The translations under genes and the position numbers were made by a program. From Phoronis australis (Eukaryota > Animalia > Phoronida): a stretch of 64,000 nucleotides of DNA. The stretch's first letter is position 1. Each line of letters begins with the position of its first letter. The notes under the pieces were generated by a model that did no database searches, was not told where the DNA came from, and worked only from the letters and a program-made list of their open reading frames with translations. The DNA is taken from positions 179,863 through 243,862 of the forward strand of contig NMRA01000227.1 of NCBI GenBank assembly GCA_002633005.1, read 5' to 3'. Below are positions 16,101 to 63,992 of this stretch, one piece after another.

Positions 16101-19100
16101 TGTGAAAAGTTCACTAGACCCCCCCAAAACCACGGCGGCCATTTTAAGGAAAAAGTTCATTGCACTGCATACAATGATCACATTAAAGCATTTTTATGTC
16201 ATGCCTAATTATTTTGTCAAAGATTACTCAAATTTTAGTCATGACTAATTATTTTGTCAAAGATTACTCAAATTTTAGTCATTACTAATTATTTTGTCAA
16301 AGATTACTCAAATTTTAGTCATGACTAATTATTTTGTCAAAGATTACTCAAATTTTAGTCATTACTAATTATTTTGTCAAAGATTACTCAAATTTTAGTC
16401 ATTACTAATTATTTTGTCAAAGATTACTCAAATTTTAGTCATGACTAAAGTTTTAACCATGTCTAGTCTGGGATAATATATTTAAACAAAGATAATTTAA
16501 GTTAATTTCTCTTTAAGGTACCATCAACTTGAGTCACTTCGATGTGTCGACTGTGCAATTTATTCTTAAATACATGTACACTGGGCACTGGGATTTAGGC
16601 AATCAGTGTAAGGAGAGTGTGATCGAACTGGCCGACTTTCTGTTGCTTCAAAATCTTAAAGCACACCTAGAGGATGGTGATCTAACACACCCACAGGATG
16701 GTGATTTAACACACCCCGAAGACTGTGATCAGACACACTCAGAAGACAGTGATCTGACACACCCAGAAGACCATGATCTGACACACCTAGAGGACAATGA
16801 TCTGTCGTCTTACCATGGCTCCATGTTCCTGAATAAGAGTTCAGTCGACAAACAGTGGCTAGTGAACTGTGCGAGTGCTTTGTGGAAGCAGTGCTTAGAC
16901 AATGCACCATACTGTGATGTCATCATTAAGGCCAAAGAGTGGGTAAGAGTGAATAGTTGATAACATTTACAATATTTACACGGACGAAAGCATGACTAAC
17001 GTGCCCAAGCAGACGTTCTTGCATCACCAGAAACTTCTGCTTCATCGTGCTTAGCAATGATGGTTAACTTGATAACCAACAACTTTGCCAGATGTTGTTA
17101 CAAATGGCACAATTTAAATGATTACTCATTTGTTCCTCTCACAGCAATTTTCGGCTCATCGGTGTGTCCTCTCTGTCTGTCCGTATTTTGAGACCATGTT
17201 CACCAATGGTAACAAAGGTCCGGATTCAGGTAGGAGAATGTTCCTAATATTTTTCATAAATGTTTATTAATGGCCAATTTCTTCCCTGATCAAATTCAAA
17301 CCTTTTTGATTTAGCCTGCTAATTTCTCACCGCAATAATAAATAACCACTTTTTTATTGCCCAAATTGTGTGTCAGTCTTTAAGCACGTTGCAATTCGAG
17401 GGATTTCGTCTAAAAGGCAAAACTTTACTTATTAGCAGTGCTAATTAGATGACCGTTTTTCAAATGCTGCGTGGGTTGGTTGTGGGCTTGTAAACCTCCG
17501 CTGACATCACTGAAAACGACTTTTGGACAGATCAGACTACTGCTGTGCCCTTTAGTTGCAAATTTAATGTAACAGTTGTACGTTTGCCTCAGTCTGTATC
17601 TTCAAAGTTCCTTGACCTCAGTTGACGTTCATTTTTGGACGGTCTGATTGCAGTGGCATTCCCTAATGGCAATTTTGTTTTTGTGCACCTGTGATTGTAT
17701 CTCTTTAACCCCTTGCTTAATCTTTGTGAAATGTGAGTACCAATAAAGGAAGACGACAACTTTTGGATGGCTATGACTACTGCTGTGCCTCCTTGTGACA
17801 ATTGGATTTTAACTCAGTCTGTATCTTCTGATCTGCCAGACAAATTATCCTCATTGGGTGAATAGGTTTCTATTAGGGAGATAACAATGCCTTTCCATTT
17901 TCAGATGGGTTTGACGTATTCTACACTACCGAGTGGCCATTTTTATGGTACTAATAATTGCCCCTAGAAACATACCATTTGCGATGCAGTCATGGGTGAA
18001 TTTTATTACTTTGCTAACTCTTGTTTATTTTTCTATTATTGTTGTTTAATCATACCCACAAAATTATAAAATGATGTTTTAGTGGACCCATGCTTAAAGT
18101 TATGGTGAGCTCATACTGTTTACAAGTCACCAAGTTTTCTGTGATATGACCGGATGTGTACAAGCCAGCAAACATCACATTTCCCTTGAACTGATCTTAG
18201 CTGGGCATTATTTGTGTACTGGTATTTTTCTGAGATTGCTGTCTGTCTTGCTCATGAAAAGAAATTTTATTTTCTACTTTATTCATAAACAATGAGTAGC
18301 ACAAACTAAAGGTAGCCTAATTGTCAGTCTCATCTTGTTACCATGGCAACCGCCTGACAATGTTTTCAGTTTCAACTTGCATGCCATTCCTATCATAAGA
18401 CAATTTCTTTTGAGAAACTGGACATTCACAACAATGTCAGGAGCCTTAAAAAATGAGAGAAGGTCAAATTCAGTAATTATTATTTTTGTCCAAAATTTGT
18501 GAGAGTTTTTAGTGCTCTCTTTGTATTACTTTCTCATGAGCTAATAGCCATGGGCAGTATGAATATAGTTTACTGGAAGTCCAACATACCAGAACAGTTT
18601 AATTCAGATGTTGGCAATTAGTCTCCATCATAGTTCAACACCATGTTAGATAATTTCTGCAAGTGGTTAAAGATGTGCATAAACAGTAAATTGTATTGAT
18701 ACAATGCCTTAATACATTTCCACTCAGGTGTGGTGGACTTGTCTGAAGTTGGACAGGAATTGGTGAAGTTTACCTTGGAATATATCTACTCCGGGATACT
18801 TGAACTAACGTTGTCCAACATAGAGTCAATTTTGAAGCTAGCTAGTGTTTTGGATATAGAGACCCTATTGACACAGGCCAGGCAATATTGCATGGAATCC
18901 ATTGATGAAGACCATTGTCTTCAAATTCGTTCATTGGCAAAAAGGTTGAATTTGGACGAGGTGTGCGAGATAGCAGAGACATATTTGTATGAGCAGTTTT
19001 CACGGATTTCAAAGACCAGTGCTATTCTTGACGTGTCGTATGATGATTTAATGGGATTTGTTACTGATTTGAAATTGAGTTATTTCACCCCAGCTGAATT

Positions 19101-31545: not shown

Positions 31546-33650
31546 AGTAACCACTGGGGATTAAAATTTTAGAGAGAAGTTTTCAATTCAATTTTTTTGC
31601 ATAGTACACTTTAGGTCTCGCGACGGACCAGGCCAGCTTAATTTGTGTAGATGTTGAGTTTCAGTGCACTTCTGGTCCCTCGGCGAACTAGTCTTGTGAT
31701 TTTTTACCAAAGTGTGTTTGTAAAACTATTTATCTCAGCCAGTACTGTTTGGTCCCGCGACAGAGCGACTATTTTTATAGGGATAATAAGCGCAGGTGTA
31801 CTCTTGGTCTCGTGACGGACCAGGTCAGCTTTCTGTGTACTCTCAGTGTACATCTGGTCCCTCTGCAAACTAGTCGAGTGTATCTTTTCACCACTGTGCA
31901 CAGGATGTTTTGGTTTCGTGAAACTCAGTGTTTTCAGATGATTTGTTTCCTGATAGATTTGACGTTTTTCAATTGTTGTCAACGTGATTCAGCTTAATAA
32001 AGTGATACCTAATTATTTATTGTCGCTTTTAATAATAGATTATAAGTTGAGAGCACCATCGTTCGCCAGTTTTTCTCGTAACGAGACAGAACACATGTTT
32101 ATTTCCGGACTAACAGTACAGTCTTCGTTCTTAAACAACTTGAGGCTGCTGTTACGCGATCATCTGATATTCAAGTTTTTACGCCCCGTCGGTGCTCCTT
32201 ATGCTCTTGAATATTTGGAAATTGTCTAAACCCCTGTATACACACTACACTTTTTCGTATACGACTTTTCTTATGCTAAAAAAGGTGCGTGTAAGCAGAT
32301 GTTCCAACAAAAGTTTTTGATGGTGGCGTGACTCATACCCAGATGTGCGCAATATGGTTTCACGAAACTTGTGAGCCAAGTTCATGTGACGAAATCGAGA
32401 AGGGTTTTTAATTATCTTAACTCCAGAGAAATGTTAAGTGCCAGAAACTTACCAGGATGCAGGAAATATCACTATTTGGCTACAAAAACAAAAAAATATC
32501 TTACACGGGAGGGGAAACCCCCCTCCCGACCGCNACAGCATCGTGTATTTTTTAGTTCATTCGTATCGCAAGCGAAAGAACCTTGGTGGCATTTTACAAA
32601 AAAAACAGAGATAGGATAGATAAAAGACACTAGTACTAAATATAAAATACAAAACACTAAAATTACAATTCGAGGCTCAGTCCCCGTCGTCATCGTTCTC
32701 AGTTATTTTAGTTTGGTTCAATTAGAATTGTCCAAGCCTTCAAAACCACAGTTTTAAAAGTAAAACTTAATTTTGAAAGATAAAGTTAAAGCCAAAATTG
32801 TAAAGTTGAGATTCTTATCGGATAGAAACTAGATCTGATGGAATCGGAAGTCATCTGCCCGAGAGGCCCGTTAAATACTCTATGCCAAGAACGCCAAAAT
32901 TGGCGCTAATTTAGAGGTATGAATTTTAAGGCAAAAACCAATAAAAATAGAAAATGACGTTTCGTCATGATAAAAAGTACCAAATATGGGTTTTTGGTAA
33001 TAGACGACCCTTGTACAATGAAATGGGCCAGTTCTTGAAAAAATGAGAAATATGTTCGTTCTCTCGGCACTTCCCGGCAGTAGACCACGACGGCGTTCTG
33101 TCGTTCAGCAACTTTTCCACACGTAAGGGGTTCTGAACGTGCGATAACACCTGGCTCCTAACTGCCCAGCCTAGTCTTTTGTCCCGTATGACAACAAGAA
33201 GGCCAATTATCTCCCAGGCTTCAAAGGGTTACTGAAACCTGGCAGAATGGATTGTCTTAACTTCTGTTGTAGTTGGGCGATTTTGGTGATTCAAAAACTA
33301 AACATGATCAGCATTTGACAAGGAATTCAGAAATGCTATTGGTTTTATGTTCAGATATGTTATAACTTTCATTTTTAGCAGCACAGCCCAGTCAGGCTAG
33401 ATACGATCTGATCGGAGATTAGAGCAATTATCGAACAAAAGAGAGCCGGCCCTCCAACCAAATGCCAGAATGGAGTTAATCAGTCGTGTAATTGGCTACA
33501 GGGGTAAACTTCCCAACTTGTTGTTGGGCTAAAGAATCGAACAAGTTGGGAGCAACGGGAAAACGCCGTAATGCCGTCGGACGGCGTGACGCCAGATATT
33601 AGAGGGGTTTCGCTAAGCGACCTCGAAATGGAATTATGACGCATACTTAA

Positions 33651-34993
33651 AGGCGGAGGCAACCTTTTTTCATGTCATTTTTAGAAAAAATAAGGTTCGT
33701 TGATTATCCCAGACATATTTTTCACTTATTTACTGCTTTTCGTAATTTAATTAATTACTCGTCGTCTACTCCGGAAGTGACGTTTTGGGAGGCAAGAATT
33801 TCGCGCCAATTTCTTTTCATACAGTCTGACTGTGAGAGCTGTCGTGTCAGTCATTGTTCTACCTCGGTTGTGATAAGTACGGTCGTCGTTTGCTTTTGCT
33901 TACGAGTCAGTCAACACGCCACGCTGTTGCTGTGTACTGGGGTGTACTCATTATCGTCTCGAGTACAGACTGGGAAGAACTGTCCCACTTGCCCGAGTGT
34001 CCCGCGACACACTCCCACTGGAGGGTGATCTGAGCAACCAAACTGCTTACATCCCGCCGTGTGACTCCCTCGTCACACACCTGGCACCTTCCAAATAGCT
34101 CCAATACAAGTCTACAATAAACTTATCAAACTTAGGCTCACCGATCTGTTCATTGGATGACGAACTGTCGTCTTCACTGGGTGTCGAACTGGGCCTGTAT
34201 TCACTCCCACTACTCAACATCGCTGAAGGGCTGCTTACAAGTTCTGGGCTAGAGACAACAGCACAGGGCGAATCACTGCTAGTTCCCGGAATTGCACGCA
34301 ATTGGGTACGTTCGGAGGCACGGGTGACAGTAGATGAAGTGCCTCCAGTCACTGTATATAGTGGCCACAGCTCGCGAGGCTTCTCGTTTCAAAAACGCAC
34401 TTCTCGGGGTTGGCGACGGGGCACTGCCGGGAATCAACAGGTATGGTGCCCCTTCTTTCAAGCGTTGTTTCGCAGGGACCTTTATCAATTCAGCGTACAT
34501 ATCTGTCATATATAATCTTACCGCAGGAAATGCTTCAGTGCACCACACTCGGTAACCCTCCACTGCTTTGTACGTTGCGTGGACGGGTAGCGCTGCGTTC
34601 TTCACATGAACGAGCTAGCCAAGTACGGCGAAGTGTGTCATCCTTCGGAAAGCGACGCAAGGTACCCAAAACGCGTGTGAGACGATAATGAGTACATCCC
34701 GGCACGCAGCAACAGCGTGGCATGTTGACTGACTTGTAAACAAAAGCAAACGACGACCGAACTTATCACAACCGAGGTAGAACAACGACCGACTCGACAG
34801 CTCTCCAGCACAGTCAGACTATAACGAAAAGAAATTGGCGCGAAACTCTTGCCTCCCAAAACGTCACTTCCGTAGTAGAGGTCGAGAAATTAATCAAATT
34901 AAGAAAAGCTGTAATTAAGTGAAAAATGTGTCTGGAATAATCAACGAACCTTATTTTCGCTAAAAGTGACATGAAAAAAGGTTGCCTTCGCCT
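33651..34993 (-). mobile_element. Kolobok-like non-autonomous DNA transposon with degenerate THAP/zinc-motif transposase 5' part and ~310-bp TIRs
   Basis: TTAA TSD (33647-50, 34994-97); termini AGGCG..CGCCT; inverted arms 33651-33960 and 34679-34993. THAP-like MPRCCCVPGC..FPKD..W..RVWCTEAF..LKEGA(P) is frameshifted. Downstream KFIV..LFGRCQVC..WECVAGHSGKWDSSQ. Confidence 0.8.
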
Positions 34994-37341
34994 TTAATTG
35001 CGCGTCCCGCGCCGATTCACGTTACAAAAATGGGTTTTGCACTAACAGGCAAATTTTTACGTGAACGTGAAAGTAGTGAACTGATCTGAGCTTAGGGGTC
35101 TCCAGTTATCGTAATACATGTGCGCTTGATAGACTAAGTTGAATGTGCGTTTTTACCCCTCCTGCAAAGAATGGTCATTGGATCGAATGCGAAATTTATT
35201 TGCAGATTAAAATCTGATGCATGTAAAAAATCACAGCCCGCAACGCAAAATTATTGTGTACTAACTTCATATCCAACGAACCCCGGCAGAATAAGGATTT
35301 TGGAAAAAGTAGGCCCCTTGAGAATCCTATCAAAAGATGTCTCACCAAATAAGAATTAAAAACGGGAGGTTAGTTCCGTTCGCGTTTCAAAGCGATGCGA
35401 ATTTCCTTCGCGTATCATCGCTCAAACACTCGATCGGGATTACACAGCCAACACTGGCATGTATGACGGGGTGTTATAAATGCGTAAAAATTCACGTTCA
35501 CGTCGCTTTGCGAAACATCAAGTGGGTACTTTCAGACGAAAAAAAAACCCCGGTAGGACCTATTATCTTCGCCGGGGCAGCCGGGCTGTCGAACGATATG
35601 CGCCAAACGACCATTTATTTTCTGGTTTTTATAACTTCTGTTTCCTATTCCCTTAAATCGTCTCATTTATGAACTGCCTTTGGACGGACTCACGAGATTT
35701 TCGCTACATGTTGTTTGGAAGTTCTTGGACGAGTCAACTCGTCTGTCGTACTGAGGCACAAGTACTGAGGTGCAAGTCAGCTGGCGGATAACATAGTTGC
35801 AAGCAGCGACAATCACACACCAGGAGGCAGTGTGCAGCATGTCGTAAAAGCGTGTCGTAAAGTGACAACTAAAATTCGTGGCGTTCGCTCATTTGTTGAC
35901 ATTTGCATCAACAACTTTTTACCTATTCTACCAGCTTACTTGTTGTGTAAACTTCAGTACAGCGTTATGACGTGTACGCAGTATTTCGGTAAGTATGTAT
36001 CCTTACCTGCTCCATCACCCCTTTTCCAAACATTTACATTCACGCCTCATAGTCTGTTACTGTTACTACTATTAGTATTAGTGCACAGTAGGACAGGTAC
36101 GTGAACTTGGAATAACGCTTAAAAAGTTAATCTCAAGAGTGTTGCATGAACTTGGAATGCGCGAGGCAACTTGACAAGTTCGCTCAAATAATCACGTTAA
36201 TGTTCATGAAAATTTGCACTGCACTAAATCAAGTTACATTTGAATAAGAATAAAATAATGTTAGTTGTAACCAACCTTTTCAACTAAGGGCGATCAGTTT
36301 CACCAAACAATTACTGATTTAGCCATTCACATATTCCTCCGGTTCAGCGACACGAGTTACGGCAAAGGAGAAAATGGTTGATCGCGAGGTCAATAATTAC
36401 AAAAATTCTTTTCACCAAACAAAAATTTCATCTTTTTGCCTTTTAAAAAATATTCAATAACAAGTTCACGCAACACTCACTTCCCGCGCTTAATCATGCA
36501 CAGCAAACTCAGTCACATCATAGACTATATATAGTACTTGGACCGCCAACTCCGTATACTTTCAATGGACGAAATCTGTGATCTTATGCATAAGCCCTTG
36601 CGTCATTATTCACTGGCGACACCTGGCTAAATTTTCTGGTGCAGTTTCCAGCAAGTACGTCATCCGCTAATCATGGTGGGCTACTGTGTGGCCGGTTGTT
36701 TGGCCACACACGTGAAATGCAAAGGAATTAGCTTCCATACCATCTGAAGACCTCATAATCGGCTGTGGGAAGAAAAGCATACTTCTTGTGTCAACGTGAA
36801 TGGCAGTTGTTTCAGCAATAAGACTTTATACATTTGTTCAAGGCACTTCGAAGATGCATGTTTTTTAAGAGGCTCTACTACTTAATCCTGTCCTCACAAA
36901 TCCATTTTTCTTTTCTCCGTTTTGGTGAAAACTATCTGGTAAACTTTTTAAGAAAATTGTCCGCTAAATTTCTTTCAAAGGTAGTGACTCATGGACTCCT
37001 GTCCTTACGAGGAACTTCAGTCATGGTCTAGTGTGCGAATTAACCAAATTACTCTTCGCTGGCCTTGATCAGACAGTTGGTCTCAGCAGAATGCGCACAT
37101 TTGGTCAGGATTTGGATCAGCGATTTCAACAAATTCACATTCGTGTACAAATAAATAGAACGCCGGTAAAACCTTTAACGTAAATAAAGATAACATTAAT
37201 ACTTCAGAAATAACCACCTGGACCGGTCAAACTCTATCTCGCAATTCAACAGCAGGTTATACAATTTATGCTGCACAAAATCTCACCAACTTCTTTGAAA
37301 ACATGGTACAGGAACACCAGAGGGGTGTGAAGGTTGTTTTT

Positions 37342-37661
37342 TAGATAAGTATTTGACCTTTTTCGAGCTTTATTTCAACGATTCAGTGCGTCTTGGAATG
37401 AAGACAATCTACAACAAAGAGAAGGATAGCCTTCACTAAAATGGCTCCTTTTACTTGCATTTTAATTATCCGTAATTAGCGAGCAACGTAGTGGAAATGC
37501 TGCTAAAACACTTAAATCTGATATCTAGCTTATACCTCTAAAAATGTCCATACAATGTCCAGAGAGAGAGAATGCTTTAATTTAGCGAGACTCGTTAGTT
37601 GTGGAATCCACTTCCTGTCCGTGACTAGTGACCTCTATTGGGTAAAGGTGAATATTCTATA
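37342..37661 (-). repeat. 3' LTR (320 bp)
   Basis: Direct repeat of 42662-42981; adjacent PPT; TATAAG and AATAAA on the element strand. Confidence 0.88.
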
Positions 37662-37709
37662 TCTCCCCCAGGTCATTAAGTAAGGAATGACTGACAAAAT
37701 ATTGGCTAC

Positions 37710-39607
37710 TCAAGGGGATACATAGTCTCTGAGCCAGGAGGGTTTGGATTTGGGTCTGACGGATCGGCGTAATTGGGCTGGCGTCGATGGTTCTCCCTGG
37801 CACGGTTCTTGTGGATCTTTATGGTCATGGTCATCTGCCGTCGAAGGGTCATCGTCAGCTGCTGACGAAGGGTCATCACTGGCATGTGCTGGCTGTGGCA
37901 CGTCGGGTGATGGCTCCACTTGTGAAGGTTTTCGAGGGAGTGTCGCAGCGGGCAATGCTGGAGACGAGTCATATGTGCTTGAAGATTTGGGCAGACTAAA
38001 TTGCCGGCGGTCAAGGAGATCATCCTCTACAGATCGGCTGGGCGGAGGCNTCGTCAGCTGCTGACGAAGGGTCATCACTGGCATGTGCTGGCTGTGGCGC
38101 GTCGGGTGATGGCTCCACTTGTGAGGGTTTTCGAGGGAGTGTCGCAGCGGGCAATGCTGGAGACGAGTCATATGTGCTTGAAGATTTGGACAGACTAAAT
38201 TGCCGGCGGTCAAGGAGATCATCCTCTACAGATCGGCTGGGCGGAGGCGAATAGACGGGCGTATATTTCCGGAGAAACTGTCTGTTCCGTAAAGTGACTC
38301 TCCCAGATCCGTGAATGCGAACGACATGCTGGTCGAATTGGCGCACTTCGATGACGCGTCCAGTTTTGTCCCAATGACGAGGGTGGTAGCCCATTTGATT
38401 CTGCACACGGACATAATCGCCAACAACAAGGGGTGGGAGCCGCTTTGTGTGTGCCATGAGTCGTTCGCTTGTTCTCAGGTGACGGTGTCGCAGGGCAGTT
38501 TCTCGTTTCGATAGGGTATCTCGCCACGTCTCATGAGGTTTGTATCGACCGGGAGATATAGGGATGAAATCTCTGATGGCATGACCAAAGACGCACATGG
38601 CAGGTGACATCTTGGTGTCGGGCGCAGGAGTATTGCGATACTGGAGGACAGCGCGTTGTACCGCATCGGTGTCGAGGTCTCCCGATGGACTGGTGTGGTC
38701 AGTGATGAGGCGCTTCATGGTTTTCACTCCTACCTCAGCTCTGCAGTTACTATGCGGAAACGCCACAGAGGATATTCGATGATGAACAACCCACGTCTTA
38801 AGGAAGTCGCGTGTTGCTGAGGCTGTAAATTCGGGGCCACCATCGCTTGCGAGCTCGTCGGGGATGCCAAATGTCACAAAGCAGCGGCGAAGACTGTCGA
38901 CAAAACCAAGTGCTCCATGTTTGGCACGTTCTATGATAGGCCAGTTAGAGTAGCGGTCCACGATTACTAGGTATGCAACGCCCCGGTATGAGAAGAAGTC
39001 GGCACAAAGGCACTGAAATGGATACTCCACCATGAGTGGGGGTGTTGGAGGTGCACGAGGTTGGGATGGCGCCATACGGTTGCAGTGGCCGCAACGGTTT
39101 CTCATGTCGGCAATGTCGTTGGTGATGCCTGGCCAGAAGACTGATGTTTCAGCACGAGATAACATAGACGACACCCCTTGATGAGCTGAGTGTAAAGTTT
39201 CCAGGACTGTTTGCCTGAGGCTTGGAGGCACCACAATGCGGTCGTGGTACAGGATGACGCCATCAAGAGTGGAAAGATTGTCACGAAATCTGTAAAACTT
39301 GCGAATCGCGGTNGCAGTGGCCGCAACGGTTTCTCATGTCGGCAATGTCGTTGGTGATGCCTGGCCAGAAGACTGATGTTTCAGCACGAAATAACATAGA
39401 CGACACCCCTTGATGAGCTGAGTGTAAAGTTTCCAGGACTGTTTGCCTGAGGCTAGGAGGCACCACGATGCGGTCGTGGTACAGGATGACGCCATCAAGA
39501 GTGGAAAGATTGTCACGAAATCTGTAAAACTTGCAAATCGCGGTGGGTAGAGAGTGGTGTGTATCGGGGAACCCTGATTCCACATATTCCGTGAGTTGCA
39601 TCATCAT
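37710..39607 (-). CDS. Gypsy integrase region (HHCC zinc finger plus DDE core), broken by single-N assembly joins
   Basis: LHSAHQG..CGHC, CADFF..VDRYSNW, SDGGPEF, SNCRAEVGVK, YRNTP; overlapping duplicated segments flank N at 38050 and 39313. Confidence 0.88.
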
Positions 39608-42240
39608 GGAGTCGCTGGTTGTGGCTTGACGGACTGCATCCCATGTGACACAATGGAGCGATTCCCTGGTAGAGACAGGTGCAATATCGTCCGGGAGATG
39701 TAATTTCTCAGGAGCGCCGTGTGGGTGCCTGGAGAGCGCGTCGGCTGCTCTGTGTTTATCCCGGGGATGTGAACCACCGTGAAACGGTAGCGTAATGTTT
39801 TCTCCTTAAGATTTCGCAGTCTGGAGTTGGGTAGGTCGTCAAGGCTGCGATCGGAGAGAACTTTTAAGAGTGGTTTGTGGTCGACGGCGACCAGCAATTG
39901 CTCACAGCCGAGTACAAAGTAGCGGGTTTTGTCCAGTGCGTCTGCCACGGCGAGAGCCTCCCCTTCGATGGGTGCGTAACGAGATTGTGCAGGGTGGGTG
40001 AATCTGCTGCCGACCAAAGTTACTCGCCAGCCACCGTTGCAACAAAATGGCTTGATGGGGCGGCAATGACAATGTTTCTGCAGGAGCCAGAAGCCAATGC
40101 CATGCTTCGACCAATCTGTTGCGAGGCACGTGGGACGCGTCTTGTCATATATCTGCACACCTTGTGTGATCTCGTTGACAATGATCTGCTTCGATTCGTC
40201 AAAAAGCCGGTCCAATTCCTCGTTCCATTTGAATGGCACGTCTGCCTTGAGGAGGCTGCGAAAAGGTTGCATTCTATCAGCCATGCTGAAGGCGTATGAA
40301 ACTTGGTTTAGGAGGCCGAACCACGACCGCATGTCTGTTATATTGGTGGGTGTTGGAAATTTCAGAATGGAGTCTAAAAAGTGTCGGCTGGGGCGTACGG
40401 TCTCGTGTGTTATCTCAAAGCCCGCAAAATCTACCTCATCGCAGCCAAACACAAATTTTTCGGGGTTCAGAATGATACCGTTACGACCGCAGATGTAAAG
40501 CCAGCGGCAAGCCTGGAAAAAGCTTTCAGCGAGGTTGTCAGCCCACAGGAGAGTATCGTCAATACACTTAGTCTTGTTGGGTATGTCACTCACTAACTCG
40601 TCAAAACGGCGGGTGTACGCGTCTCCTGAAGCGATGTAGCCTTGGGGCGCCCTACAGTATCTGTAGCGGCCCCAGGGGTTAATGAAGGTTGTGAGATGAC
40701 GATCATCGGGGTGTATTGGGACGGAGTGGTAACCGTTCCAAGCGTCAAATATTGTTTTCTTTTTGCCCGGAGGAACTGAGCGTGCTTGGAGGAATGGGGA
40801 TTGCGTATGGTGGGTTTCACGACTTGCGTGGGCGTTCAACGGCTGAAGATCAACCGTGCGGCGTGGCTTGCCATTCTTTTTGGCACAGATGACCATTCTG
40901 TGGCACCAAGTGACTGGTTCTCCGACAGGCACGGGCTCTATCACCTTGAGACGGACATCTTGGTCGAGCCCGGCTTTGACGGCGTCCCGCCAGTGGAGAG
41001 GCACTGGGATAGGTGTATGGTACGCAACCGGTTTTGCCGTAGGATCAACATTCAAGCGCATTGGAGGCCCAGTCATGGTGGGCAGGGGTTGATGTTCACA
41101 TGTATTGAATGTGCTGGAGCCGTATAGGTCTAAGATGTATTGCTGGAGTTTCTCGCGGTTTTCTGTTGTGGCCGGGAAGGGTAGCTCTTTCGGGACTGGT
41201 GGTGGGGCCTCGCGCTTACGGCATTGGCATGTGTGCTGCTGCGGAGCCTGCACGTTTGTGTCAGGGTCAGGGGACATGATGCCGTTCTGAGCGACTGTCA
41301 GCGTGACGGACTCACCAATTGTGGGGAAGTCCGGCGATATTATGCCAAGGTTGGTACATACCTCTCGGCTGAGGAACACTTTTCTGGTTGTGTCAGTTAT
41401 GTACACTATGGCTTTCGTGTGCATCGGTTTCTGCGATGGTCCGCGACCAGAAAAGCGGAGTAGAGTGGCACCAAGGATGTTAATGTCGCCGTTGTTGGCC
41501 GCGTGCATCTTCATGGTGACATGGAGTAGGTCACGCTGGGAGAGACCTAGTTGTTGAAGCGTGTTGAGGCCGGCGAGGCAGCTCTGGCAGCCTGTGTCTG
41601 CCAGGCAGTGTATAACGACTGGGGTGGCCTTAGTGCAGTGTGAAGTAGGGAAGCCAAGTTGTTCGAAGTCGCTGTTGTCAGCCAAGGTAACTGAGAGTTG
41701 TACCGTGGGTTGCGGTTTCGATGCTTGGCGTCGCCATGTGTCGTTAAGACTATCGTACAGGTAATGGTCGAGTTGTATCATTGTGTGTGACTGTGTATTA
41801 CCTGTCATGTGGCAGAACACTCCACAGAGTTGGTCAAAGACTGCACTCTCATTGTTGGGAGGGGGCTTGACTTTGGGGTTGTCCTTACTCCGACATACGG
41901 ATTCGAAGTGGTGGGGTCTGTTGCAAGACAGGCAGGTGTGCCCGTAGGCGGGACAGTTCTGTCGACGGGCTTGTGCAGGGGCACTACGACCATGCCCTGT
42001 TTGACCACAGTAGGTGCAATTTGTGCTTTTGTGGGATGTCGTATCTCTTTTGTTGCAGCGGTATGAGCTGGTGGCATCTGTTTGGACGACTGGGGGGTCT
42101 AGTAGACGTGAGGCAGACCGTTTGCCAGATTCTTTGGCTTCGACAAACTGGAACACTTGCTCAAGAGACATGTCCTGGTTTTTGTCACCGAGGAGATCCA
42201 GCTGAATCTCTGGGTCGGCTAAACCCCTTATGAGAACATC
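39604..42240 (-). CDS. Gypsy gag-pol: Gag zinc knuckles, aspartic protease, RT, RNase H (frameshift near 39757)
   Basis: CTYCG..H..C and CLSCNRPHHFESVC knuckles; LADTGCQS protease; RT RYCRAPQG..CIDDTLLW; RNase H LATDWS..YAPIEGEALA..DHKPL. The expected KHRAADALSR after VHIPGI is in a shifted frame. Confidence 0.9.
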   Translation of the reverse strand, partial: DVLIRGLADPEIQLDLLGDKNQDMSLEQVFQFVEAKESGKRSASRLLDPPVVQTDATSSYRCNKRDTTSHKSTNCTYCGQTGHGRSAPAQARRQNCPAYGHTCLSCNRPHHFESVCRSKDNPKVKPPPNNESAVFDQLCGVFCHMTGNTQSHTMIQLDHYLYDSLNDTWRRQASKPQPTVQLSVTLADNSDFEQLGFPTSHCTKATPVVIHCLADTGCQSCLAGLNTLQQLGLSQRDLLHVTMKMHAANNGDINILGATLLRFSGRGPSQKPMHTKAIVYITDTTRKVFLSREVCTNLGIISPDFPTIGESVTLTVAQNGIMSPDPDTNVQAPQQHTCQCRKREAPPPVPKELPFPATTENREKLQQYILDLYGSSTFNTCEHQPLPTMTGPPMRLNVDPTAKPVAYHTPIPVPLHWRDAVKAGLDQDVRLKVIEPVPVGEPVTWCHRMVICAKKNGKPRRTVDLQPLNAHASRETHHTQSPFLQARSVPPGKKKTIFDAWNGYHSVPIHPDDRHLTTFINPWGRYRYCRAPQGYIASGDAYTRRFDELVSDIPNKTKCIDDTLLWADNLAESFFQACRWLYICGRNGIILNPEKFVFGCDEVDFAGFEITHETVRPSRHFLDSILKFPTPTNITDMRSWFGLLNQVSYAFSMADRMQPFRSLLKADVPFKWNEELDRLFDESKQIIVNEITQGVQIYDKTRPTCLATDWSKHGIGFWLLQKHCHCRPIKPFCCNGGWRVTLVGSRFTHPAQSRYAPIEGEALAVADALDKTRYFVLGCEQLLVAVDHKPLLKVLSDRSLDDLPNSRLRNLKEKTLRYRFTVVHIPGINTEQPTRSPGTHTALLRNYISRTILHLSLPGNRSIVSHGMQSVKPQPATP

Positions 42241-42661
42241 NNNNNNNNNNNNNNNNNNNNNNNNNNNNNNNNNNNNNNNNNNNNNNNNNNNNNNNNNNNN
42301 NNNNNNNNNNNNNNNNNNNNNNNNNNNNNNNNNNNNNNNNNNNNNNNNNNNNNNNNNNNNNNNNNNNNNNNNNNNNNNNNNNNNNNNNNNNNNNNNNNNN
42401 NNNNNNNNNNNNNNNNNNNNNNNNNNNNNNNNNNNNNNNNNNNNNNNNNNNNNNNNNNNNNNNNNNNNNNNNNNNNNNNNNNNNNNNNNNNNNNNNNNNN
42501 NNNNNNNNNNNNNNNNNNNNNNNNNNNNNNNNNNNNNNNNNNNNNNNNNNNNNNNNNNNNNNNNNNNNNNNNNNNNNNNNNNNNNNNNNNNNNNNNNNNN
42601 NNNNNNNNNNNNNNNNNNNNNNNNNNNNNNNNNNNNNNNNNNNNNNNNNNNNNNNNNNNNN
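42241..42661. other. Assembly gap (421 N)
   Basis: N run. Confidence 1.
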
Positions 42662-42981
42662 TAGATAAGTATTTGAACTTTTTCGAGCTTTATTTCAACG
42701 ATTCAGTGCGTCTTGGAATGAAGACGATCTACAACAAAGAGAAGGATAGCCTTCACTAAAATGCGAGGAAAATGAACGTAAAATTAATAGGCATTAATCG
42801 CTGCAACGTAGTGAAAATGCTGCTAAAACACTTAAATCTTATATCTAGCTTATACCTCTAAAAATGTCCATACAATGTCCAGAGAGAGAGAATGCTTTAA
42901 TTTAGCGAGACTCGTTAGTCATGGAATCCACTTCCTGTCCGTGACTAGTGACCTCTATTGGGTAAAGGTGAATATTCTATA
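42662..42981 (-). repeat. 5' LTR (320 bp visible, abuts gap)
   Basis: Direct repeat of 37342-37661 with 6 substitutions plus a 39-bp complemented tract. Confidence 0.88.
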
Positions 42982-43209
42982 TTTTTATTCTTCAATGTTA
43001 AATTTTTGTAAGCGGACAAATGGTTTTTAAATTTCCGCCTGAAGTCCTAACATTTCCAAACTTAAGCCATTCAAACGAACGTTTATGACGAAAACAAAAT
43101 TCTTCAACCAGTTTTGTTAAATCCTATGCCACCTGTAGGGTACGTAATGAGCCAATCCCACTCATAATGTAACATAAAGGATACTAAGTATTGCCCTTCT
43201 GAAATATTA

Positions 43210-44869: not shown

Positions 44870-47160
44870 TTACTGTTCTATTTATTTTCAAAACGTTATT
44901 GTATTACATTTAATTTATTTTCTGTTCAACTCAATGAAGCCACCTAATATGAATGCATTCAACACAATTAATGCATTGTAAAAACCCAAAGTTATGCTCT
45001 ATCAACGTTAGACAAAATCAGTACACCCCTTTCTTAAAAAATGGGTTAAAAGTTAGAAACAAAGGATGCAAGTTTCCATCACTTGTAACATTGATTTTCG
45101 ACATTGATGTTGGGGAGGATCATTAGTCTGGCGACAGCAACACGGAATCATACGAAGGCTATGATTTTCAAAATTTGATTCGTTTTCGTTGTGTGTCTTT
45201 TTTCCCTATGGTTCAGGGTTACTTCTGAATCCAGGAACAAGAACTGAAAGAGGCAGGGTTCGTGATAACGTTGGAGAACGGTAACATTTATGTAAGGTGT
45301 TACAACTGTCATGGATATTGTCATCTCCTCTGTTTTCATCCAACCTTCCCAGATGAAAACTTGAATGAAGAGGACCTTCAGTACTTGAGTGAGCATGGTA
45401 TACTGTGTGATTTATGTTGAATTATTCAATGGTTCTTTTAAGAGCCATTTCACGCTATACCTACAACCAACGGCCCTTTTAAGGGCCACTCAACACTTCC
45501 CAGAAGAACTGCTCACTTGAGAATATTGAATTATAAACATGCAAAGGTTAAAATAGTCAAATCGTTGCAGAGCCGCATTTTTTAATTCGAACAAAATTGA
45601 TATTTTTCTAAACCAAAAAGGTTATTTAAGTATCTTTTGCATCCACAGGGTACTCCTTGGAATTTGTGCACAAACATGCTTTCGTAGTTTTCTCAGTAGG
45701 CCTATGTGAACCATAAATTACAAACTGTCCGATAACTATGCTGCTATGCTATTGGGCAAGCAGACGACATAATCAGTCGGCACCGAAGTTTGAATTTTGT
45801 AATTAATTACCAGTACATTGGCAAAAGTACTCACTATTAGACCAACACTTCTACTATTGAAAGACTTTGAACAGCGTTTCAATGTCAAAATTAATATTTT
45901 TTTCGTTGTACTGGACTGTAATTTAGATGCAAATATTTCTCGTCAAAATACACTAACCGGAAACTGCACCAGAAAATTTAGGAGAGTGGCGGCGCTTCTT
46001 GGCTAGCACGGAAGAAAATGTCGGAGTTGCGAATCTGTTGTCTGTAATATATGGTCACAGCCAAGCCACAGGCATGCAGTCGTTCGCGAAACATATAAAC
46101 GCACAGCCTGGGAGCCCTGCTGGGACTTGGCCTAGAGCTGTGGAGTTTATATAGTCCTGAATCGTATCCACCTTTGACGCAAAGTTGCACTAACTGTAAT
46201 AAAACATATGTTTCTTGTATGGACTTGGTTATGACTGAATCATTGGGAATTTCACCTCCCTCCGATTGCCTGCTCAACATTGTCATTGAGTGACCACCGT
46301 CTAGCCAACTAGAGACGGTGTAGCTCGATCCTGGGGGCTGGGGGGGGACTATAGTCCCCCACTTTTTTCAGTGCTGCGCTGCCCATATTATCCTATAGGA
46401 GCTTCATACGCTGGAAGCTTTTCGGCGCATGATGCCTCACATTGACTAAAACTCTTGCAATTCGAAGTGTGTTCAAATGAAAATGCCCAAAGGCAAAGTT
46501 TATAGTTCTAAATGTTTGAGAGACAAGATTTTTAAAAGAAGATCTTAAAGTACTTGCAATCACTCATTTCATATCAAAACACCAAAAAACAAATCAAATG
46601 GATGCCGGAAAGCAGTACAGTTACCGGCAGATAAGAATATAAAATAGTAAAAACAGTAAAAATAAAACGACGATTGTCGGTTCTACCATCATTAAAATAT
46701 TCCCCACGTTTCGAGCCGTCGAGAATTCTCGAAGTTNCTCCGATTGCCTGCTCAACATTGTCATTGAGTGACCACCGTCTAGCCAACTAGAGACGGTGTA
46801 GCTCGATCCTGGGTACTTGCAATCACTCATTTCATATCAAAACACCAAAAAACAAATCAAATGGATGCCGGAAAGCAGTACAGTTACCGGCAGATAAGAA
46901 TATAAAATAGTAAAAACAGTAGAAATAAAACGACGATTGTCGGTTCTACCATCATTAAAATATTCCCCACGTTTCGAGCCGTCGAGAATTCTCGAAGTTT
47001 TAATAATAAAAACTGAAACTCCTGACATAGATTCCCCCAAGATACTGGGTTCCATCGTACCTTGTTGTTATTTAAATAATGTACATATGTTGTAACACCT
47101 ATGTATTTTTATTAAATTTTACAACGCTTTCCATGACAATTCCTTCTGTAATTGTGCTCT

Positions 47161-48478: not shown

Positions 48479-51400
48479 ATGCCCGACCGTGTGGCAGTGT
48501 TTCAACTCGGCCTGCTATTGTTAGCTGTACCTCTTCAGTATTTCATCTCTCGTCATTACTCACATAGTCAAGCTGAAAGAAGTCAAACATTGAGGAAGTG
48601 AGTTACTATTGCGAAGGAAGTAAATCTGTTTCAGCTGAGAATGTAGATACTGATAAGCGATATGTAAAACAAAAAATTTGTGAGCGCTGTCCTGATTTAT
48701 TGAGAAGTACAGTACATGACAAAAGTAATCAGACAAAGTATTGCGTAGTAATGGCTAATTCTGTGAACGGCAAAAATTACTGCTAATAACTACTGTGGTG
48801 ACAAAATTCTACAAAATGGCTACCTTTAACATTCCTGTTAATTCCCTCCATTATCGATCATCGAGAAAAGACAACGAGTTCAGCTTCCGGCCAGCCATCA
48901 TGACGAGGAATTCCAAATCATTTTGTCTGAATACTTTTGACTTGTACTGTAGTTTACTGTAGTTTACTACCACTACATAATTAGTCTTCATTTGCTAGTC
49001 CTAAGTTTGACCTCCAGTTGGGACAGAAATCTTTTTGGACTTTACACATGTCATGTGGTTTGACCATGGAACTACACAAATGAAGACTAGTAAAGCTTAC
49101 TGTAAATATAATCATGTGGGTTCATTTTCACCTTATTCCATTATCTACTATTTACTCTTCAATGAATAGACTGTATTCATTATAACCACAATTTATGGTA
49201 GTAAGTCAGCTTTCTGTGGTGATGCCAGGTAAAGTGAGCTATATATTGTAGTGTTGTGATTAGATAGAACATGTGGAACATTGCATGGTGTTTCTAAATA
49301 TGCTGTCAAAGTGCAAAGGACTCGGCTTGTATTCTTTACCCAAGTTTTTAATATTTGACGGTTTTTTTTTCAGGCTGCTTAACGGAGTTGGAAATCTGAA
49401 AAAGAGTTATTTAACATGGGAATCGTGGGAGAAATGGTGCCGATCCATTCTGGGAAGTTTAGAAAAATATGGCAAGCGAGGTAGCAAAGGAAAGAGAGTT
49501 GTGGTGAACACTGATTCAGCTGGTGACCTGCAGGGGGAGTCGCCGGCTGTGGAGGTTATGAAGTATAATGACCCTAATGGATACTTTGCTGGTGATTGTT
49601 CTCTCTACTTAGTGTTGAATCGTGGAAGGGGTGTGGGAGAAAAATGTCCCAAGTTTTAAATGTGTTGCGTGTCTACTTTTTCTGTTATTCATTTCGTGCA
49701 CGTGCTGTTGAACAAAATGTGGCTTCTCGTACCTATTTTAGCCACCTCAGAGTCCTCTCATTAGGTGGAAATGACACAACAGGGGGACCTCAGATTTATT
49801 TGGAGACTTGGTAAAATTCCCAGGTCGCTATGAATTCGCCACGCCACTTCCAAGCATGTATTCAGAATACTGCAGGTAGTAAACAGGCTTAAGTCAGAAT
49901 TGTTGGGCAAAACTCGTAAGGGTCTGGTCACGTTCGTCTGCCTCAAGAGCTTTGTGCAGGCAGGATATTGGTCTCAAGAATGGGGAGCGCACGAGGCAAT
50001 CTTAACTTTCGGTTCAAGCAAAAAATCTGTTAAAAATCGCCATCCGGACAATCTCGGGTACTCCGGCAGACATTTGCTGAGCTTTCTGATTTTCCGCTAG
50101 AGGTTTCTAGTTTGTTTTATTTTCCACTCAGTGTCAATGAGCTTTGACAATCTCGGTTCCCATTAAGTGACCTGGGAATTTGCCAGGTTGCATTTGACAA
50201 GTTGACATTATGTCAAGTGTCAAGTCCTGCACGTGCTCTTGTGTTGNNNNNNNNNNNNNNNNNNNNNNNNNNNNNNNNNNNNNNNNNNNNNNNNNNNNNN
50301 NNNNNNNNNNNNNNNNNNNNNNNNNNNNNNNNNNNNNNNNNNNNNNNNNNNNNNNNNNNNNNNNNNNNNNNNNNNNNNNNNNNNNNNNNNNNNNNNNNNN
50401 NNNNNNNNNNNNNNNNNNNNNNNNNNNNNNNNNNNNNNNNNTATTGTAGTGTTGTGATTAGATAGAACATGTGGAACATTGCCTGGTGTTTCTAAATATG
50501 CTGTCAAAGTGCAAAGGACTCGGCTTGTATTCTTTACCCAAGTTTTTAATATTTGACGGGTTTTTTTTCAGGCTGCTTAACGGAGTTGGAAATCTGAAAA
50601 AGAGTTATTTAACATGGGAATCGTGGGAGAAATGGTGCCGATCCATTCTGGGAAGTTTAGAAAAATATGGCAAGCGAGGTAGCAAAGGAAAGAGAGTTGT
50701 GGTGAACACTGATTCAGCCGGTGACCTGCAGGGGGAGTCGCCGGCTGTGGAGGTTATGAAGTATAATGACCCTAATGGATACTTTGCTGGTGATTGTTCT
50801 CTCTGCTTAGTGTTGAATCGTGGAAGGGGTATGGGAGAAAAATGTCCCAAGTTTTAAATGTGTTGTGTGTCTACTTTTTCTGTTATTCAGTTCGTGCACG
50901 TGCTGTTGAACAAAATGTGGCTTCTCGTACCTATTTTAGCTCAGAGTCCTCTCATTAGTTGGAAATGACACAACAGGGGGACCTCAGATTTATTTGGAGA
51001 CTTGGTAAAATTCCCAGGTCGCTATGAATTCGCCACGCCATTTCCAAGCATGTATTCAGAATACTGCAGGAAGTAAACAGGCGGAAGTCAGAATTGTTTG
51101 GCAAAACTCGTAAGAGTCTGGTCACGTTCATCTGCCTCAAGAGCTTTGTGCAGGATATTGGGCTCAAGAATGGGGAGCGCACGAGGCAATCTTAATTTTC
51201 CGTTCAAGCAAAAAATCTGTTAAAAATCGGGTTCTCCGGCAGACATTTGCTGAGCTTTCTGATTTTCCGCTAGAGGTTTCTAGTTTGTTTTATTTTCCAC
51301 TCAGTGTCAATGAGCTTTGACAATCTCGGTTCCCATTAAGCGACCTGGGAATTTTCCAGGTTGCATTTGACAAGTTGACATTATGTCAAGTGTCAAGTCC

Positions 51401-54400
51401 TGCACGTGCTCTTGTGTTGACAACAGCGACCCAATATTCACTGAGTGCAGAGAGTGATGTTGTGCGCCTTGTGTTGTTATCAGGGCTTGGAATTTTCCGC
51501 GGAAACGCGGATTTCCGCATTTTTCAAATGTTCTGTCCGCGTATTTTATTATATTTCCACGTAAAAAAAATCGGATTTGATATAAAATTTCCGCAGCAAA
51601 TTCCTTTCTTACTGCCACGTTGCCGACGACTTTCACCTCGAAAAGCGGAAGTTGCTCTTTATGTTTCGGAGGAACGTAAATTGTCAACATTGCCGGGGCT
51701 TCTGGGATTGCGTGGTGGATTTCCTCAGTGGCAGCTCGTGTGATTGTAAACCACGGTGACAAATACTACGACTCTGCAGCCAAAAATGCTTGGAGGTGGG
51801 AGTGGCGGACGAGCTAAGACAGACGCACGCTTCCGGAGGTGGTACTGTTTTTTTTTAGTCCTCTCGGCAAAAGGTCCACACCGACTCTTCAAGGCTGGCT
51901 GCGCGCATGTTTTGGGCCGTAAAAATTTCCGTGTTTTTCGCCATTGGTCATCCCAAGCCCTGTGTTATGATAACTGATCATTAAATTTGAGAACTCGAGT
52001 GAACCGCCAAAAAACTTGGTAAAAACGCATCTTCACATTGTATGGTTAGTCTTGTGTGTGTGTTCTGTAGTGTCCACTAGGGGTCTCCACATGTTTGTAG
52101 TTTTTCACACCTTTCTGTACGTTTTCACAATTGCTGAAAAAGGTTTAGCCAAGTAACGAGCATTGAAAAAGGTAAGAAGTGATTAGTAAGTTACAGTACT
52201 AAGTAAATGCCACCTAATTATTTTTGGGGGCATTCGCATTTTAATTTTATTTGACTGGGTCCAATAGACAAAATGACATCATACTAAACAATCGAATACA
52301 AGAGCGTTTATGAGAGGATCCTGAGAAGGCCATAATGGACAGAAGCCAGACAGTGTTTTGCTCAATAGAACTTACATTGCTCCCCGAGTACACTAATATT
52401 AATTTGGTGAACTTGTGTGAACTTTGAACGTGGGTAAATGTGGTACTTAGTGACTACTTCTACATTGGTCGCAGGTAAAGCTGTTGTAATTCTTACTGCT
52501 TGTAAGGAATTTGCAGGACATAGTTTGATCCCAATCTGTTGTATCTGTGTAGCTTAAATTTGTGGTGAATCGTGTTTTCCAAAAAGCTCTCTTTACACTT
52601 GATATTAGACATGGCAAACAACTTAACATGGACTGAATGTGAAGTTGTTTAGTTTTGTTTGTTTTGTTTCTGTCCTACTTATAAATCCTGGTTTCAAGTG
52701 ACACAAATATTAATGGGCTGATCTTACATTTTCAGGCTCACCTGAACCACGCACAGAACGACCTAGAGAGGTCAAATACAGAGTAGGACAGGTCATACGA
52801 CATAAAAAGTGGGGGTATAGAGGCGTCATAATTGGATGGGATTTACATGCAAGGGTAATGCACTGCACTATCAGAAATATTCTTGGAATTATAACCATAT
52901 TCCTCAATATTGTATTCATCTAAATTATAACCTTAAATGTTGTTGACTTGTGTTTGCATTCAAAAGTTGCCATGGTTGAAAAGAAGTGGAAAGGACAAAG
53001 AAGTATATAGAGCAAAGAAGTATTAGGACAAAGAAATATATAGGACAAAGAAGTATATAGGACAGAGAAGTATATAGGACAAAGAAGTATATAGGACAAA
53101 AAAGTGTATAGGACAAAGAAGTGTATAGGACAAAGAAGTATATAGGGCAAAGAAGTATGTAGGACAAGTCAGTTTCTTCTGTAATTATAAGTATGCTGTT
53201 AAGCAATTCAGCTGTTGCTGTTTGGTTGTACCTTTATACATTGTGTCTGGTGTAATGTTGACCTGTTGCTGCACCAAGTTAAGGTTGCAGTTACCCCCTG
53301 TGTATGGTCATCTGGTTGGTTGTGACTTCATGAAATATTTGTTTCATTGCTGTAGGCACCTGAACATTGGTTAGCCCAAAACCACCCAGCAGCGAAGACC
53401 AGCTGGCGTACACAACCAAACTATGCAATACTTGTAGACACCCGTGACCGCATGACTCCACAGATGACATATGTTCCTCAGGAAAACATTGAACCATTGG
53501 TCAATGTGCAGGTATGTCGAGGATAATCTTAATTCAGAGGTGTCTAGTATCCCTTTGGTCTCCAACTCTACACTCATGGTGTTATACTATTTAAATAAAA
53601 AATATTCTTCACTTGGAGCAGCATAGATGATCCAAGACACTAACCAAATGTTCAAGTGAGTTTTGGTTCTTTCATTTGATTTTGTTACTTGTGACCAGAA
53701 AACTGACTTCGCTAAAGACAGGTCTTAACTTTCAGTCGATTTTAAGATAAGACTTAAATCTGTCTCAAGATCATTTCAAAAAAGAGATCTTAAGTTTGAC
53801 TTAAGTTTTTGACTGAAGATTTGTCTTAATTTTTATTATCTTATTAGATGTAGAAGTTTCAAAGTTCGGAATTTGAGACAAATCTAAGACTTAAGTCAAA
53901 AATGAACTTAAGTCAGTTTCTTGGAACAGGCCTATTGTCTGTTGTGGTTTGAGATACTCCTTGAGGATGATGAATTGAACTTCATTGAAATGCTGGACTC
54001 ATACATATGTAAATAAAGAATGTTAACAGTTAAACAAAGCAAGTCCCCAGTGTGTCGGCACCCTCTCCTGCAACAACGTTATTTTTGGCTTTTTTGATAA
54101 AAAGAAAATTTTAAAAACATTGTTTCATTATTGGGTAAACAGTTTATTTATACCCAAAAGTTTGGATCAAAAAGATTACTTCTAAGTACATTTTTTAACT
54201 TCATCAAAGAATATTATATGAGTGAAAAGTATAATGCTCGTAAGGATTTGAATTTAGAATTTATACAAAAAAGATTGTGTAACTTTGAAACGGTTTTTCT
54301 TAGCAGTAAAGAGCATTAGTTGTGGGGTGTGTGCGCGTGCGTGTCTGTGGTGTTCTTTGTCTTTTTGTGGTATTGTAATTTTTTCTCATTGCCAATAAAT

Positions 54401-62400: not shown

Positions 62401-63992
62401 TTAGATGACGTGCATGAAGAACTGTCAAATGCTGGTTTTCACTTGATGACCTGGGCTTTTAGTCTTAATTCAAAATTTTAAGTTTTTACTCCAAATATCG
62501 AGTTTTTAGTCAATCTTGTAGCTCAAATCTAGGGGTCATAAAGTGCAAATTTGGACTAGAAACTAATATGGCTACTGAAACCATAATGTACTAGCACAGA
62601 CTGGTAGGCACTTACCTTCAGTTTACATAGAAGTAGAATTAGAACATTTCAAACAGAATTTCGAGTTCGATTTAGAGTAAAAAGGTTAGAACCCTAAGCT
62701 CTGGGTATGCCAGTGCCCTAGGTATGCCAGTGCCGTGGGTATGCCAGTGCCCTGGGTATGCCAGTGCCCTAGATATGCCAGTGCCCTTGGTATGCTAGTG
62801 CCCTGGGTATGCCAGTGCCCTTGGTATGCCAGTGCCCTGGGTATGCCAGTGCCCTGGATATGCCAGTGCCCTGAGTATGCCAGTGCCCTGGGTATTCCAG
62901 TGCCCTGGGTATGCCAGTGCCCTGGGTATGCCAGTGCCCAATTAACACTACTTTAAGAGCCTAAGCCTATCTCACACCCTCTGTGGTGCATCGTTCAAAA
63001 ACCATAAAATACATTACTATCTGCAGTTAAGACCGAACACTGTATCACACTAATAACCATACAGTGAGCATACCACTGGTTTTTGTGATATTGGTGAGAC
63101 ACAAGACAGGATGTGACCTGCAGAGACGCACCTAGTGGGGGGCCGTGGGTGAGAAGAACATCTATTCCGTCGGGGATTTTATTCCACACCTCCAAAATGT
63201 CTTTTCCTCTGTCTTTATTGAATCCCCAGTCACCAAAGTATGGCTGCCTATCAAACAAAAGAACTTCGCTTTCTAATGCAATCATAACACATTACCTTTT
63301 TGAGAAGGAACTGCATGGTTACGTGACACAAGATCAAGAATTCTATGAATTTGAGAAAACAACAAATGAACACATGCTCACAATAATCCGTTATTATAAA
63401 GTTTAAATTACAGCACCATACTATTCACTTTTGTTAATTGCCAGCACAAAAGTCAATCTTTATAGTGGATAAACCAACATGTGAACATACTTTTATCTAT
63501 ATTATAAGCTATAGAAGAATGTAAAAATACAACATCAGCAATTTTGTAGTTTGAATTTGAAAAATCTTCACCGTTAAGCAGTGTAAAAGTACGTCATCAA
63601 ACAGGTCTCACCAACTCACCATGGTGACTCATAGATACAAACAGGCCTCACCAACTCACCATGGTGACCCATAGATACAAACAGGCCTCACCATGTCACC
63701 ATGGTGACCTGTACATATAAACAAGCCTCACCAACTCACCACGGTGACCCATAGATACGGAAACCAAAGGCTGAGGACTCTTGGTCTTCTAAGTATTCAC
63801 AGTTGTAAAGCAACTCTTTGGGATGCTTAATCTTGTGATGGTCCATAAAACTGTGAAACTGATCAAGATTTAGGCCAAACCGGTATTGCAGGTCCATTCC
63901 TCTTTCACCAAACAAGCCTCCATTGGGTCCAGTCTCCATGGTGAGATCATGGTTACCAGCTATGACAAACTTGTACTTGTGAGTAAGGGAAG
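59406..63992 (-). CDS. MPPED1: Metallophosphoesterase MPPED1/MPPED2-like, 3' partial: complement(join(59406..59578,61956..62066,63132..63247,63740..63992))
   Basis: Calcineurin-like phosphoesterase motifs VIAGNHD, IYGSPWQP, DVLLTHGPP, HVFGHIHEG and TTYVNAS..NPPIIFDLP. GT-AG junctions are frame-consistent. The 5' exons lie outside the window. MPPED1 vs MPPED2 orthology cannot be resolved. Confidence 0.9.
59661..60290. mobile_element. Inverted, truncated copy of the Harbinger-type MITE in the MPPED intron
   Basis: Same GGGCTGTTCCAGCAAAATCTGTATGGGA terminus; 60090-60260 is reverse-complement homologous to 44305-44515. Confidence 0.75.
62700..62940. repeat. 17-bp minisatellite, ~14 copies, intronic
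   Basis: Unit GGGTATGCCAGTGCCCT. Confidence 0.95.
63598..63758. repeat. 40-bp tandem repeat x4 spanning the MPPED exon/intron boundary
   Basis: ACAGGCCTCACCAACTCACCATGGTGACCCATAGATACAA. Confidence 0.9.

Follow-up and report, generated by a model that had tools for sequence, protein, structure and literature searches.

The window analyzed here, a 64,000-nt stretch of genomic DNA from Phoronis australis, contains on its minus strand a Ty3/gypsy LTR retrotransposon that is ordinary apart from a short tract in one of its two LTRs. Between the LTRs, and in minus-strand order, Pfam recognizes reverse transcriptase, RNase H and integrase domains (PF00078, PF17917/PF17919, PF17921 and PF00665). The gag-pol reading frame is broken near 39,760, and no env-like frame is present among the ORFs of at least 80 amino acids. 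Positions 37662 and 42982 agree only by chance, through the target-site T, and fall outside the 320-nt LTRs. Coordinates of the features are collected in Table 1.

Table 1. Features of the retrotransposon and its insertion site, in window coordinates.
Feature	Position	Strand	Basis or remark
Target-site duplication TTTTT, left copy	37337..37341	+	Empty-site contigs
3′ LTR, 320 nt, TA...TA ends	37342..37661	-	Tract A plus 6 substitutions relative to family contigs
Version A, anomalous tract, in-place complement of the family sequence	37444..37482	+	LTR comparison and run depth; likely assembly error
Polypurine tract adjoining the 3′ LTR	37662..37672	-	One C fewer than in X1 and X2 contigs
Integrase region, zinc-binding and rve domains	38051..39312	-	Single-N gaps at both ends, with duplicated overshoots of ~200 nt
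Gag-pol reading frame	39643..42240	-	Reverse transcriptase and RNase H by Pfam; CCHC knuckles and DTG protease motif by eye
421-N gap over the primer-binding site and gag start	42241..42661	.	X3 contig has 424 letters before the LTR
5′ LTR, 320 nt	42662..42981	-	Identical to majority contigs; begins exactly at the N-gap edge
39-nt span bounded by the 4-bp inverted repeat GCGA/TCGC	42763..42801	.	One base left of the tract
Version B, run-supported family sequence	42764..42802	+	0 differences in contigs of X1, X2, X3 and X4
Target-site duplication TTTTT, right copy, within a high-copy host repeat	42982..42986	+	X1 depth up to 11,372 beside the LTR

The site of insertion (about 37300-37341 and 42982-43111) is itself a high-copy interspersed repeat, whose summed contig depth reaches 11,372 in sequencing run X1 and whose spectrum of variants differs between samples S1 and S2. 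Loose contig ends at 42982 read into the sequence that lies to the left of 37337 (12 contigs in X1, nine in X4 and five in X2), which places the element in a host repeat of which the other copies lack the insertion. With its depth near 10,000, the flanking repeat is one that a plain contig would be unlikely to get across.

The assembly of the element is patched. There are three gaps inside it, of which the nearest is 568 nt from the tract, and the single Ns at 38050 and 39313 are each accompanied by a duplicated overshoot, of 198 nt with three differences in the first case and of about 230 nt with four differences in the second. Duplicated overshoots of this kind are commonly seen after scaffolding and gap closing with short reads. 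For the largest gap, a 744-nt contig of the DNA run X3 carries 424 letters ahead of the LTR, close to the 421 Ns allotted, and these would belong to the internal side. The final 12 of them are the reverse complement of LTR positions 42719-42730, and, read in the sense of the element, the primer-site position does not start with TGG; to go by this one contig, the element looks like a member of the self-priming Gypsy lineage. One of the 3′ LTR substitutions considered below, at 37406, lies in the 12-mer corresponding to 42719-42730.

Elsewhere in the window near-identical duplications lie beside N gaps, at 46550-46999 (187 nt, 99% identity) and at 49244-51419 (about 1 kb, 95%, across a 195-N gap), and these are likely unmerged haplotypes or overshoots. 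Long inverted repeat pairs at 1902-2831 (273 nt, 94%) and 33638-35006 (about 320 nt, 89%), together with a dispersed inverted copy (4326-4808 with 51481-51946), are probably non-autonomous DNA transposons. Minisatellite arrays are found at 14291-14825 (37-nt unit), 16153-16472 (40 nt), 52957-53193 (17 nt), 62664-62986 (17 nt) and 63558-63797 (40 nt).

When the two LTRs are compared without gaps, at an offset of 5320, the stretch 37444-37482 of the 3′ LTR (version A) is the Watson-Crick complement, in place, of 42764-42802 of the 5′ LTR (version B) at 39 of 39 positions, and the remaining 281 positions contain only six substitutions (37357, 37406, 37494, 37520, 37600 and 37601). Both counts, and the lack of any indel, agree with the earlier note on this DNA, which had been made from the sequence alone. 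Because no base equals its own complement, the borders of the tract and its length of 39 nt are exact. With the composition of the window, the chance of a 39-nt in-place complement is about 1e-23 per alignment position. An exact-match search of the whole window under complementation, reversal and two other fixed base permutations returned the A/B pair with its 39 nt, all other matches being no longer than 19 nt and the runner-up among same-direction complement matches being 16 nt. No second in-place complement tract exists in the window, nor between anchored repeat copies, where the scan covered 1,915 bases in direct pairs and 2,354 in inverted pairs and the longest other run of a single substitution class was five (direct) or eight (inverted), each in misaligned or loop sequence. 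Runs of 6 and 8 nt in the inverted pairs proved to be alignment by-products, arising from a one-base misalignment and a self-compared loop.

Template switching leaves a reverse complement behind, and neither LTR contains any 10-mer of A's reverse complement, so that the tract lacks this mark and is, as already remarked in the earlier note, not a microinversion. The further remark there that no inverted repeat lies at the tract needs amendment, since GCGA at 42763-42766 and TCGC at 42798-42801 enclose exactly 39 nt, an interval displaced by one base to the left of the tract. Folding gave no stable hairpin across the tract (-1.9 to -3.9 kcal/mol). Two attempts to recognize the native version by sequence statistics were of no use: Markov models of order 1-5 favor B by 0.2-0.9 bits, a likelihood ratio of 1.1-1.7 that is too weak, and the longest word held in common with the rest of the LTR is 7 nt for A and B alike, which does not discriminate.

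Ten sequencing runs were listed, and seven of these, with no RNA run among them, contain part of the query. Comparison was with the DNA runs X1-X4, which come from one study and at most two samples and were used in the form of Logan contigs, and with the RNA run X8, used as raw reads; X5, X6 and X7 (small shares), X9 and X10 were left out. X2 was compared with the 5′ LTR (B) only and X8 with the 3′ LTR (A) only, so that the 3′ LTR was set against X1, X3 and X4 as contigs and X8 as reads. Version B is present with zero differences in contigs of all four DNA runs and at repeat depth, the values over the tract being 404 in X1, 58 in X4, 34 in X2 and 12 in X3. The contigs concerned (152 and 167 nt in both X1 and X4, a single one of 320 nt in X2 that runs from 42662 to 42981 end to end, and the 744-nt contig of X3) are unbroken at either border of the tract, and a 59-nt X3 contig crosses the junction of the 5′ LTR with its flank, again with 0 differences. 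Contigs that look single-copy have a depth of about 30-48 in X1, and the depth of B beside them suggests, very roughly, some ten copies of the LTR. Version B is joined to both alleles of the 37494/42814 site and so is common to several copies. With B in contigs of all four DNA runs and A in none of the four runs compared with the 3′ LTR, B is the real norm of the family, and it is the 3′ LTR that deviates. It follows that 42764-42802, where the earlier note had located the anomaly, is normal family sequence and that the deviation is at 37444-37482.

Version A was found in no listed contig of X1, X3 or X4 and in the aligned letters of no RNA read of X8, keeping in mind that contigs drop minor alleles. 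The depth at 37448-37473 is zero in X1, X4 and X8; the X3 contig is forced across A with 24 other letters and six gaps; and the listed X1 and X4 contigs break off at 37443 and 37483, the loose letters beyond these points spelling B. As described in a portion of PMC12424806, Logan contigs collapse minor alleles, and a single-copy A would consequently vanish from them. Depth is also zero at 37318-37330, and no contig of the junction between the 3′ flank and the LTR at this locus appeared, so that this very 3′ LTR is unsampled by the contigs. The X8 evidence consists of eight RNA reads (from the 18% of the run that was read) of another study, apparently from other loci, and these show the base of the B copy at 37357 (4/4), 37406 (4/4), 37494 (3/3), 37520 (3/3) and 37600-37601 (1/1). 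At 37495 (equivalent to 42815) three of three X8 reads have A>G, a change present in none of the DNA contigs, and this reflects either another individual's allele or A-to-I editing, the reads being few. In all eight the first mate maps to the minus strand; with most stranded library protocols this indicates transcripts antisense to the element.

Apart from the tract, the differences of the 3′ LTR look natural. Its substitution at 37406 converts CpG to CpA, and 37600-37601 is a case of CA versus TG, both of which look like CpG decay. Such natural-looking substitutions make it seem that the 3′ LTR was built from a real, slightly diverged copy. Two of the six substitutions of the A copy recur in contigs, namely G37494 (depth 138, joined to B) and G37520 (depth 48 in X1). 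The latter is on a 93-nt contig (depth 48 in X1 and 8 in X4) that has both G37494 and G37520 and, unlike the window's copy, departs from the LTR at 37525; the 57 letters beyond that point have no match in the window, and to judge from its sequence this contig is a truncated or interrupted LTR copy located elsewhere. The contig that holds the end of B together with G37494 has less depth than the two that follow it, 137.9 versus 168 in X1 (an 18% shortfall) and 14.2 versus 20.0 in X4 (29%). Should the G37520 copy make up what is missing, its last difference from B would lie near 37479-37482; the shortfall is a weak hint. A Poisson test of the shortfall gives p of at most 0.0005 for X1 and 0.001-0.03 for X4; its result is discounted because another branch point in X1 is off by 12%. 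Contig abundances carry an error of up to 5%, according to a section of PMC12424806, and any private change or truncation in the G37520 copy would give the same shortfall.

That B is supported, that A is unseen, and that the region is patched with gaps and duplicated overshoots together argue that A is likely a software error, a complement written without reversal during assembly, and most likely no feature of the DNA at all. The leaning of the earlier note toward a technical artifact is thereby borne out, B alone having been found in the run data. In outline, 39 bases of real LTR sequence, as at 42764-42802, would have been written as their complement and left unreversed. All six substitutions relative to the majority contigs are on the 3′ LTR (p = 0.03 if they were split at random), and the 5′ LTR, being equal to the majority at all six sites, is likely the collapsed repeat contig, with the 3′ LTR perhaps supplied by a local gap-filling or variant-applying step, and it would be this step that complemented and skipped the reversal. 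To our knowledge no copying mechanism dispenses with reversal. The study of template switching in PMC5453318, in the part that bears on this, takes non-complemented reversal as its null for the very reason that no mechanism for it is known. Besides the loss of minor alleles from contigs and the unsampled 3′ junction, it counts against the software error that a general bug should recur, yet the window has a single tract; that the other differences of the 3′ LTR look biological; and that the contig joining B to G37494 falls short in depth, as would be the case if a copy with A-type alleles lacked B up to about 37479-37482.

A particular form of the software error, possible and on present evidence somewhat doubtful, would have been triggered by an inversion. 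In it one LTR copy carries a micro-inversion between GCGA and TCGC with a span of at most 39 nt (42763-42801), or chimeras in the library mimic one, and the step that applied it had a start one base off and a complement that was left unreversed. A misapplied inversion of this sort would account at once for the abrupt borders, the tract length and the depth hint, and the shortfall, with a last difference at about 37479-37482, is within its noise also compatible with an inversion that has an inner part extending to 37477. The listing for the LTR (arms of at least 4, spans of 25-60) contains 30 inverted repeats, and of these GCGA/TCGC alone has a span of 39; it is one base off both borders. An arm of this kind with a same-length shift occurs by chance at 3 of 275 LTR positions and 950 of 62,980 window positions, and with any shift of 1 at 5 of 275 and 2,533 of 62,980, or 1-4% overall. 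Template switches that invert a short spacer are documented, as set out in part of PMC5453318. Against this, the inverted repeat was found after the fact and has an arm of only 4 bp, the 42763-42801 span does not fold through that arm, and two slips are required. No inverted contig, joint or loose end is among the matches listed, the depth hint is weak in view of the 12% deviation and the error of up to 5% just described, and the G37520 contig departs from the LTR at 37525 where the window's copy does not. The inverted repeat and the depth shortfall are thus weak hints that an inversion signal set off the error.

The same sharp 39-nt block, without indel and with one case in the window, would result if the record had been edited or corrupted after assembly, by a script or by hand and unconnected with gap filling. 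No positive sign of this was seen, and the block lies in the one region that was already patched and in an LTR with further departures from the family contigs, which makes such an origin improbable. An instrument origin is less probable still. In color space A and B differ at exactly two colors, both at the borders, and, as explained in a passage of PMC4569514, one wrong color alters all later bases, so that two compensating SOLiD errors could have turned the block into its complement. The arithmetic is the same for any in-place complement. The other two permutations that color errors should produce (A<->C with G<->T, and A<->G with C<->T) have longest matches of 14 and 18 nt in the window and of at most 8 between anchored repeat copies, a small sample. 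The records of X1-X4 name no library type, so that SOLiD data may or may not be involved. Of the earlier note's suggestion of paired color errors it can be said that two color changes suffice, and that the window shows no tract of the other two permutations.

There is only a very slight probability that A is a real mutation, in which 39 nt of this LTR were copied via a parallel-stranded duplex or a flip of polarity, during reverse transcription or repair. The earlier note had offered parallel-strand or reverse-polarity copying as its biological option, for which no positive support emerged. In favor of a real mutation, the rest of the 3′ LTR has the look of a genuine, diverged copy, and the point where the depth shortfall ends is close to the border of the tract. 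Parallel duplexes form in vitro, and parallel synthesis by Taq is claimed in one paper (PMC4304224). That claim is a single report on one synthetic template, with a Ct of 23.3 versus 33.2 without template (PMC4304224), and PMC4304224 also relays that amplification of L15253, a candidate taken earlier from a database, did not succeed. Version A is in no read or contig examined, and a real event of this kind needs two switches of polarity in exact register. Were it true, in-place complementation would be a class of mutation beyond antiparallel 5′-to-3′ synthesis, and A in raw reads would overturn the assumption that copying does not occur without strand reversal, and with it the null model of template-switch studies.

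Read as a software error, the tract matters little for biology and has its interest as a clean signature for quality control, namely assembly k-mers that are absent from reads and whose in-place complement is present there. It also has a practical consequence, since tract A would inflate estimates of age based on LTRs, with 45 differences counted in place of 6.

A literature search, which took in few subscription journals and no supplements, yielded no report of a block complemented in place, whether in an assembly or in a genome; one query gave 14 hits, and the 8 of these listed were, by title, mostly designed controls or benchmarks of repeat models. The LTR flanks with a 39-N gap between them, used as a pattern, gave 0 matches in metagenome_contigs and viral_contigs, collections from which the family is absent and which are therefore uninformative. 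Natural 'parallel-complementary' sequences were reportedly claimed by Tchurikov in 1992. They were also the subject of Veitia and Ottolenghi (2000), as far as relayed in PMC4304224. In distinction to the parallel-complementary DNA and PD-PCR claimed there (PMC4304224), the block here is perfect, lies within otherwise collinear LTRs and has only one of its versions supported by runs. Template-switch micro-inversions (the Ripley model, and its four-point form of Loytynoja and Goldman 2017, as presented in parts of PMC5453318) have in common with it a short block replaced without indel, collinear flanks and an inverted repeat near the borders; they yield a reverse complement, whereas A is an unreversed complement with the repeat one base off. 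SOLiD color-space errors, on the partial account in PMC4569514, give the same pattern from two color changes and should give the other two permutations equally often, of which there are none in the window. The host element, with its LTRs, 5-bp target-site duplication, polypurine tract and order of reverse transcriptase, RNase H and integrase, is in keeping with known Ty3/gypsy retrotransposons.
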